This document shows, piece after piece, positions 12,265 through 12,836 of a DNA stretch of 64,000 bases. Position 1 is the stretch's first letter, and the number at the start of each line of letters is the position of its first letter. The notes under the pieces are model-generated. The model was given only the letters and a program-made list of their open reading frames with translations, was not told the origin of the DNA and searched no databases. Position numbers and translations under genes: made by a program. Origin of the DNA: Alphaproteobacteria bacterium (GTDB lineage: Bacteria > Pseudomonadota > Alphaproteobacteria > CAAHEQ01 > UBA3637); NCBI GenBank assembly GCA_015062395.1, contig SUUS01000002.1, positions 35,028 to 99,027 on the forward strand, read 5' to 3'.

Positions 12265-12340
12265 GGGTGCGTAGCTCAGTTGGTAGAGCAGCTGACTCTT
12301 AATCAGCGGGTCTGGAGTTCGAGCCTCCACGCGCCTACCA
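12265..12340 (+). tRNA. tRNA-Lys (anticodon CTT)
   Basis: Cloverleaf built by hand: acceptor gggtgcg/cgcgcct; D-arm agctcagttggtagagc; anticodon stem gctga/tcagc with loop ctCTTaa; T-arm tggag-ttcgagc-ctcca. CCA is encoded. Confidence 0.85.
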
Positions 12341-12836
12341 AAAAAACCGTCCGAAAGGGCGGCTTTTTTGTATGTGTGCGTAAGGCGAAGAACTCGAAAG
12401 AGGGCGTGGCTTGAAAATCTTCCAAGAAGGACGATTTTCAAACGCAAGCCCAATGATACCTTATGTTTGATAGACCATGGCAATGGTCGCATCAAACATT
12501 AGTTTCCATTGCACGAAATTTTTCTGAAAGAAAAATGTGCCTCCACGCGCCTACCAAAAAAACCGTCCGAAAGGGCGGCTTTTTTGTATGTGTGCGTAAG
12601 GCGAAGAACTCGAAAGAGGGCGTGGCTTGAAAATCTTCCAAGAAGGACGATTTTCAAACGCAAGCCCAATGATACCTTATGTTTGATAGACCATGGCAAT
12701 GGTCGCATCAAACATTAGTTTCCATTGCACGAAATTTTTCTGAAAGAAAAATGTGCCTCCACGCGCCTACCAAAAAACCGTCCAGAAGGGCGGCTTTTTG
12801 TATGTGTGCGTAAGGCGAAGAACTCGAAAGAGGGCG
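12324..12836 (+). repeat. Tandem 216-bp direct repeats (2 full + 81-bp partial), each starting with the last 17 nt of tRNA-Lys (att-like)
   Basis: Unit = cctccacgcgcctacca + terminator hairpin ccgtccgaaagggcgg + about 175 bp. Copies start at 12324, 12540 and 12756 and are near-identical. The third copy diverges after 12836. Confidence 0.85.

Follow-up and report, generated by a model that had tools for sequence, protein, structure and literature searches.

Tandem repeats known as tRNA-linked repeats (TLRs) have been described in Escherichia coli, where 22 of them are found in ten loci with one to five repeats per locus (Stenum et al. 2021, PMC8144298). The hallmark of a TLR is that its last 18–19 bp, at the 3' end of the unit, are the same as those that end the upstream tRNA or rRNA gene (PMC8144298). 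The repeats at tyrT/tyrV go back to Egan and Landy in 1978 (as described in PMC8144298), and three others, rrA, rrB and rrF, are flanked by T1 and T2, the dual terminators of rrnA, rrnB and rrnD; read-through of T1 yields their RNAs RrA, RrB and RrF, for which processing at the repeated 3' end has been proposed, and the remaining E. coli TLRs are without known function (PMC8144298). In the searchable literature we found TLRs described for enterobacteria only. In this article we analyze a tRNA-Lys(CTT) gene and the 216-bp repeats that follow it in an uncultured, low-GC alphaproteobacterium (assembly GCA_015062395.1, contig SUUS01000002.1, positions 35,028 to 99,027 of the forward strand); this whole stretch of 64,000 nucleotides is referred to below as the window. 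The TypA protein of the host is 100% identical to that of an 'Alphaproteobacteria bacterium' metagenome-assembled genome at NCBI, and TypA matches of 85–95% identity suggest about 10 related species. By layout the locus is a member of the TLR class and by sequence it is a new RNA family. The interpretation that we favor, and regard as probable, is that of a gene located behind tRNA-Lys(CTT) that encodes a structured RNA of ~180 nt, ends in a copy of the tRNA 3' end, and is tandemly duplicated in the window.

A note made earlier from the letters of the window had described the locus as tRNA-Lys(CTT) followed by 2.4 tandem copies of a 216-bp unit, and this description is borne out by ARAGORN, Rfam and Tandem Repeats Finder. 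The last of these reports an array at 12323–12836 with a period of 216, 2.4 copies, 98% matches and a score of 1000. Copy 1 (12323–12538) and copy 2 (12539–12754) are 100% identical over 216 nt, and the partial copy 3 (12755–12836, 82 nt) carries three differences, A7 to A6, CGAAAG to CAGAAG and T6 to T5. Each copy begins, as the note had stated, with the tRNA gene's 3' end, the length of the shared core being 18 nt rather than the 17 nt given there. The core, GCCTCCACGCGCCTACCA, is the same as positions 12323–12340 of tRNA-Lys, beginning with the two final bases of the T-loop and running to the tRNA 3' end, and it starts all three copies, at 12323, 12539 and 12755; these are the three occurrences in the window at up to three mismatches, compared to 0 expected by chance. 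The terminator hairpin that had been noticed in each unit is likewise present, with a terminator-like hairpin and a T-run after every copy of the core (hairpins at 12347–12362, 12563–12578 and 12778–12793). The array can therefore be written as A-B-A-B-A', where A stands for 82 bp made up of the core, the terminator and ~40 nt, and B for a body of 134 bp. Counted from the end of the tRNA gene, the units follow directly from 12341 in the same orientation, the + strand being indicated by the terminators and by G-U pairs in the predicted fold. The features of the locus are the following:

12224 to 12252, + strand: putative sigma-70-type promoter of the tRNA-Lys unit (TTGCAT, 17 nt, TATAAC), as read from the sequence.
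12265 to 12340, + strand: tRNA-Lys(CTT) with CCA encoded, called by both ARAGORN and Rfam (tRNA, 65 bits).
12341 to 12556, + strand: TLR unit 1, with terminator T1 (hairpin 12347–12362 and T-run), a predicted RNA body at ~12378–12556 and the 3'-terminal core at 12539–12556.
12557 to 12772, + strand: TLR unit 2, 100% identical to unit 1, with the terminator hairpin at 12563–12578, the body at ~12594–12772 and the core at 12755–12772.
12773 to 12836, + strand: truncated unit 3, with the terminator hairpin at 12778–12793 (loop CAGAAG, T5) and ~37 nt from the start of a further body (to GAGGGCG), after which unrelated spacer follows.

A consensus scan found no promoter inside the repeat units, the site at 12224–12252 being the only promoter-like site upstream of them. 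A dispersed repeat or miniature inverted-repeat transposable element was considered and rejected, as a BLAST search with the unit, covering the window and every locus fetched, matches this locus only.

For comparison we checked tyrT/tyrV in the genome of E. coli K-12 (NC_000913), where a 178-bp repeat is present in 3.14 copies; the array begins within the tyrV 3' end, and rttR and tpr are annotated in it. The window has the same kind of arrangement: same-strand tandem units behind a tRNA gene, an array that starts inside the tRNA 3' end, an 18-nt identity at the 3' end of the unit (18–19 nt in E. coli), a fractional copy number (2.4 compared to 3.1) and a unit of similar size (216 compared to 178 bp), with two full units and one truncated unit falling within the one to five units of E. 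coli loci. The two systems differ in that the E. coli repeats follow a tyrosine tRNA in an enterobacterium while those in the window follow tRNA-Lys(CTT) in a low-GC uncultured alphaproteobacterium, and there is no homology between them; the rtT family (RF00391) gave no cmscan match over 12200–12960 even at E <= 10, and none at the gathering level in the window or its relatives. Termination inside the tyrT repeats of E. coli is Rho-dependent, whereas each unit in the window has an intrinsic terminator. Judged by the order of its parts, T1, body, core and T2, the locus in the window appears closest to the rrn-type TLRs, that is, to RrA, RrB and RrF, each of which is a small RNA gene that lies between two terminators and shares its last 18 nt, at the 3' end, with the stable RNA upstream. 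It differs from them in following a tRNA rather than 5S rRNA, in the absence of T2 from one of the related species described below, and again in the lack of homology. The 3'ETS-leuZ RNA (mentioned in PMC8144298) is comparable as a non-tRNA RNA freed from a tRNA primary transcript, but it is a short, unrepeated spacer fragment without a copy of the tRNA 3' end at its end.

Related loci were reached via homologues of the two flanking proteins, an acyl-ACP thioesterase and a 340-aa protein that the earlier note had called an orphan, and they represent three further species. In the first of these (contig L017) the thioesterase is 81% and the orphan protein 57–58% identical to the window; in the second (L031 and L032) the orphan protein is 55% identical; and in the third (L038) the available part of the thioesterase is 81% identical and the contig stops just inside the orphan gene. 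All three species have an identical tRNA-Lys gene, terminator T1, a segment homologous to the unit of the window, and then a second core, which is exact in L017 and L031 and matches at 17 of 18 positions in L038 (C to T). A second terminator, T2, follows the second core in L017 and L031. The segment between the cores, ~180 nt long, is homologous in all four species, with invariant blocks (for example CCCAATGATACCTTAT and ATCAAACATTAGTTTCCATTG) alternating with stems that differ in sequence and still pair, while the spacers after the last core (and terminator) cannot be aligned between species. Judging from these alignments, the inter-core segment is a conserved island and not variable cargo. 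In a given species the T1 and T2 regions match, but they are different from one species to the next, a pattern of concerted evolution that implies continuing exchange between the repeats, and the order of elements in L032 (body end, core, terminator, body, core) makes it seem that a second species carries at least two units. Wider scans added no further case: two conserved body patterns had no match in a metagenome contig collection, and a double-core pattern with a gap of 185–215 nt had none in the GTDB representative genomes. The single core has nine matches in the latter genomes, three of them relevant (L025, L029 and L030) and none with a TLR; L025 and L030, which are distant relatives, have an intact tRNA-Lys and no repeat. 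Some contigs of relatives are short, with L018 and L020 breaking inside the tRNA and L039 ending within the thioesterase gene, and L021 contains the thioesterase gene without a tRNA after it.

Two features of the spacers in these species were recorded in passing. Between the TLR and the downstream gene, L031 contains at ~430–690 a promoter-like TTGTAT...TATAAT, ~200 nt of hairpin-rich sequence without an Rfam match, and a terminator; this extra segment is followed by a Cys-rich open reading frame (ORF) of 128 aa with an apparently signal-peptide-like N-terminus. Past the last TLR terminator, L017 (2050–2200), L031 (300–420) and L035 (1–110) have in common a short repetitive element that is not found in the window, consisting of AAGTGAC repeats and then palindromic arms similar to ...cgtcattgc...gaagcaatcc, which may be a small dispersed palindromic repeat.

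The inter-core body is probably a conserved structured RNA. Folds of single sequences are far more stable than those of shuffled sequences (z = -5.1 and -6.5; unit 2 of the window has a minimum free energy of -63.2 kcal/mol and z = -5.1), and independent folds give the same architecture in three of the four species. The predicted multi-branch fold has five parts, namely a closing helix, a 3-bp GNRA hairpin and hairpins 1, 2 (which is long) and 3. In the closing helix the 5' end of the body, GCGU.AGGCG, is predicted to pair with UGCCU..ACGC, which is the first part of the tRNA-derived core, leaving GCCUACCA as a free 3' tail; the C to T change in L038, the sole substitution in a copy of the core, falls at an unpaired position of this helix. 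The GNRA tetraloop GAAA is changed to GCAA in L031, the GNRA form being kept. The alifold structure of the alignment of four sequences contains 56 pairs with 95.5% of cells paired, and two-sided changes occur in 10 of the 56 pairs, compared to 3.5 ± 1.4 in shuffled alignments and 0–4 in slid controls. None of 500 shuffles reaches the observed percentage of paired cells, the observed count of two-sided pairs or the observed covariation score. The compensatory changes fall in hairpins 1 and 3 and at the tip of hairpin 2. Because the structure includes several G-U pairs, the fold is possible on the + strand only. Known RNA families do not account for the element: Rfam contains no family other than tRNA that matches at the gathering score in the window and its relatives, or at E <= 10 over 12200–12960, and tmRNA or another known RNA was rejected as ARAGORN and Rfam find the tRNA only. 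We also considered a tRNA-like cloverleaf in which GGGTGCG/GGGCGTG would form an acceptor stem with CGCGCCT of the core. It was discarded as the main fold, given that these bases have a local pairing with CGCAA(A/G)CCC in which there is a two-sided compensatory change from U-A to C-G. The minus-strand ORFs at 12133–12495 and 12499–12711 run antisense through the tRNA and the repeat, and their frames are not kept in the related species, in agreement with the earlier suggestion that they are artefacts of the repeats.

These data can be combined into a model of how the locus may work. The RNA gene would start just after T1 and end with the copy of the core, with T2 following in three of the four species. 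Its transcription would come from the tRNA promoter at 12224–12252 by read-through of T1, in the manner of RrA, RrB and RrF of E. coli, because no promoter is detectable inside the unit; equivalent promoter hexamers are also found in L017 and L038. The 3' end of the RNA would be set by the machinery that processes tRNA 3' ends, acting via the tail that is identical to the tRNA, and by T2 where it is present. The flanking direct repeats (core and terminator, 49–82 bp) may recombine unequally or slip, so that the array grows and shrinks, which would explain both the concerted evolution within species and the presence of two identical units and a truncated third. As for the role of the RNA, a by-product small RNA of the tRNA operon whose amount is coupled to growth rate is the most economical guess.

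Several points weigh against this model. The proposed read-through of a terminator with a 6-bp stem and T6 is an assumption, and T2 is absent in L038, whose own minimum free energy fold is also unlike those of the other three species. No variation occurs in the closing helix or in the lower part of hairpin 2, which hence give no covariation signal, and with four distinct sequences, two of which (L017 and L031) are 95% alike, the covariation is suggestive but not statistically firm. The assignment to the TLR class is by layout only and carries no sequence or structure homology to rtT of E. coli. The second identical unit is found in none of the 16 conspecific metagenome contigs described below, and may be specific to a strain or an effect of assembly. 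Finally, an ancient integration event could be the ultimate origin of the duplicated tRNA end; the present conservation of the segment is not explained by it.

This last point leads to the interpretation advanced in the earlier note, in which partial duplications of a tRNA 3' end mark the attachment (att) sites of a tyrosine integrase. The two tRNA ends would be attL and attR, the ~200 bp between them would be a decayed element, comparable to a minimal cis-mobilizable element (CIME), and repeated site-specific integration would have multiplied it. Such att duplications, including those of CIMEs that lack an integrase, do resemble the locus in having a piece of DNA between direct repeats of a tRNA 3' segment and in being able to accrete in tandem. 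The block of identity, which runs from the T-loop to the CCA, is reportedly a classic sublocation of integrase sites, although TLRs share this property and it does not discriminate between the two. The middle copy in the window is wholly of the proximal type A, so the duplication junction must lie within the first ~24 nt (core and A-run) that A and A' have in common, and not in the longer identical stretch further 3', as would fit a site-specific event. Elements do target tRNA-Lys: in a more distant relative, a gut 'Azospirillum sp.' metagenome-assembled genome (L029, CABUBU010000004.1), positions 398–443 hold a 46-nt 3' fragment of tRNA-Lys(CTT), from the anticodon loop to the CCA, adjoining kilobases of phage-like genes with Bro-N, PLD-nuclease and F5/8-type-C domains, and its downstream flank is homologous to the flank of the intact tRNA in L030. 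That fragment looks like a genuine att scar of an integrative element at this tRNA, and it differs from the locus in the window in its length, its start in the anticodon loop and its kilobases of cargo. The window itself contains at 1 to ~7600 (+ strand) genes of a T7-like podovirus (large terminase, scaffold and major capsid proteins, tail tubular proteins A and B, an endolysin of the SleB type and small holin-like ORFs). They belong to a prophage or to a segment derived from phage, which runs off the left edge of the window and lies 4.7 kb upstream of the array; no integrase and no copy of the core is found at or near it within the window. No integrase gene is present within the window from ~12 kb upstream to ~9 kb downstream of the array, the genes at 8269–20895 being HTH, Lnt, RNase H-like, thioesterase, mTERF-like, PgpA, flavoprotein, dehydrogenase, HAD, epimerase, response regulator and DUF2336. 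The further copy of the core next to an integrase that the note had proposed to search for is likewise not found: outside the array the window has none at up to three mismatches, and the core 18-mer and a body 35-mer have 0 matches in the viral contigs of IMG/VR, plasmids and integrative and conjugative elements not having been searched. The segment between the cores is kept in four species with compensatory changes in its stems and invariant linkers, unlike a decaying remnant or variable cargo, and the repeat takes in the terminator and, in the species of the window, 40 nt more. The empty site is absent in the three related species, which all have the inter-core element, and only the distant L025 and L030 are without it. 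Nor is the accessory patch at whose edge the note had placed the locus a recent island, the gene order RNase H-like, thioesterase, orphan, PgpA being kept in the related species. An att scar is thus unlikely, and with it the serial integration and excision that the note had offered for the origin of the array; its other proposal, slippage or recombination between the repeats, does explain the copy number.

The remaining alternatives concern what the repeat encodes and how many copies there are. If it were a neutral local duplication, the array would be a functionless product of slippage and its hairpins incidental. Units 1 and 2 are indeed 100% identical, which points to a recent event, copy number seems variable between assemblies, and most E. 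coli TLRs are without known function. Nevertheless, the order tRNA, T1, body and core is common to four species whose adjoining spacers are unalignable, and stems have been swapped for other sequences that still pair, so we consider this reading improbable for the element as a whole, while the extra unit in the window alone is plausibly neutral. The earlier note had set a simple local duplication against an integrase scar; the repeat is present in the related species as a conserved structured element, which points to a third explanation. More than 20 metagenome contigs encode both flanking proteins without a difference in sequence, and we fetched 16 of them (L001–L016), none of which shows more than two cores. 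Thirteen of these span the array, and all have the form A-B-A' with the same A' variant, that is, one unit fewer than the window, with a thioesterase-orphan spacer of 528 bp compared to 744 bp in the window; the truncated copy that is third in the window is found in every conspecific contig that covers that end of the array. Collapse, polymorphism among strains, or an error in the window may lie behind the difference of one unit. An error, in which the true locus would be A-B-A' and the second identical unit would come from a mis-resolved repeat loop, touches the copy number only and appears unlikely, given that the conspecific contigs look like short-read assemblies (several are MEGAHIT k141) and that an assembler of short reads will usually collapse tandem units that are identical over 216 bp, not add to them. 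Moreover, the three other contigs (L008, L015 and L016) end inside the array, as expected if alleles with several units exist, another species (L032) seems to have at least two units, and TLR loci of E. coli reach five. A small basic peptide similar to that of tpr in E. coli, the 'protamine-like' gene annotated inside the tyrT repeat, could be read from a + strand frame through the body (window 12371–12772; Arg/Lys-rich VRRRTRKR...FKRKPNDTLCL...IKH) that is open in the window, L017 and L031. The frame has a stop codon and a frameshift in L038 and no conserved start codon or Shine-Dalgarno sequence, and in the region of hairpin 1 every residue is altered and the pairing kept, which argues for constraint on the RNA rather than on a protein. 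A peptide gene is accordingly most improbable, and the open frame is probably a by-product of conservation at the RNA level.

The gene downstream of the array, which adjoins the TLR in all four species, is the following:

12953 to 13975, + strand: mTERF-fold helical-repeat protein of 340 aa (the earlier 'orphan'), with its own promoter at 12907–12935.

The protein has a Pfam mTERF match (PF02536) of 19.3 bits, below the cut-off of 23.1. Its AlphaFold2 model is an all-helical repeat structure (mean predicted local distance difference test 85, predicted template modeling score 0.74), and a Foldseek search of the PDB places mTERF structures in all of the top 17 matches, the best being human MTERF1 on tRNA-Leu(UUR) DNA (E = 8.5e-5, probability 1.00, template modeling score ~0.5). 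A search with a profile of the family returned 209 cluster representatives; several of them pass the Pfam mTERF cut-off (32–76 bits), and some carry Sigma70_r4. On the strength of the structural model the gene is predicted to encode a protein of the mTERF fold, a left-handed superhelix of three-helix repeats. A more distant homologue was examined for a neighboring tRNA gene, but its contig (P0139/L041) ends 12 bp upstream of the gene. The mTERF family is still called absent from prokaryotes in recent literature (PMC12977773), and 'pTERF' proteins have been reported in mostly Bacillota metagenome-assembled genomes (PMC11417379). It is conceivable, if very unlikely, that the protein binds the repeated DNA of the tRNA 3' end and terminator, or the TLR RNA, and thereby sets transcription through the tRNA-Lys terminators. 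The adjacency of the two genes weighs little in this respect because the order of the whole neighborhood is kept in the close relatives. If true, the protein would correspond, in a bacterium, to mitochondrial MTERF1, whose binding site lies within the tRNA-Leu(UUR) gene, and its alphaproteobacterial host would bear on the origin of the supposedly eukaryote-only mTERF family.

A few other observations in the window are unrelated to the TLR locus. A run of 14 G is found at 7838–7855 within ggggtgggggggggggggg, and six independent conspecific contigs (L001, L004, L005, L006, L011 and L012) end within ~100 bp of it; we considered these ends as a boundary of the prophage and set this aside, the G run being more likely a sequencing or assembly problem. 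The single ORF of 1078 aa at 28920–32156 (+ strand) combines an LptF/LptG permease domain (residues 7–355) with an LptD domain (659–1011) and is an unusual fusion of inner- and outer-membrane parts of lipopolysaccharide transport. Type IV secretion genes occupy 43437–52625 (+ strand), with a VirB9/CagX-like protein encoded at 43437–45059 and, at 45159–52625, a protein of 2488 aa in which a C-terminal TrbI/VirB10 domain follows many beta-flower, DUF3659 and RHS-like repeats; a 237-bp tandem repeat lies inside the latter gene at 50289–51073. Another tandem repeat, of 39 or 78 bp (7.3 or 3.6 copies), is located at 37502–37785 in the ORF at 36840–38879 (679 aa), which has no Pfam match and is G-rich in the repeat region (GC skew 0.33).

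The TLRs of E. coli have been known since 1978 and are essentially unexplained, and here an alphaproteobacterium that is distant from E. coli, uncultured and low in GC has an unrelated sequence with the TLR layout, whose body is conserved in a way consistent with a structured RNA. The finding suggests that the attachment to a tRNA operon of an RNA with the same 3' end as the tRNA is a solution reached repeatedly, rather than an oddity of E. coli. For the mapping of genomic islands, it means that partial duplications of tRNA 3' ends are not automatically integrase scars. With this locus there are two systems in which the function of the copied 3' end can be addressed, be it as a processing signal, as a stability element or as a substrate for recombination.

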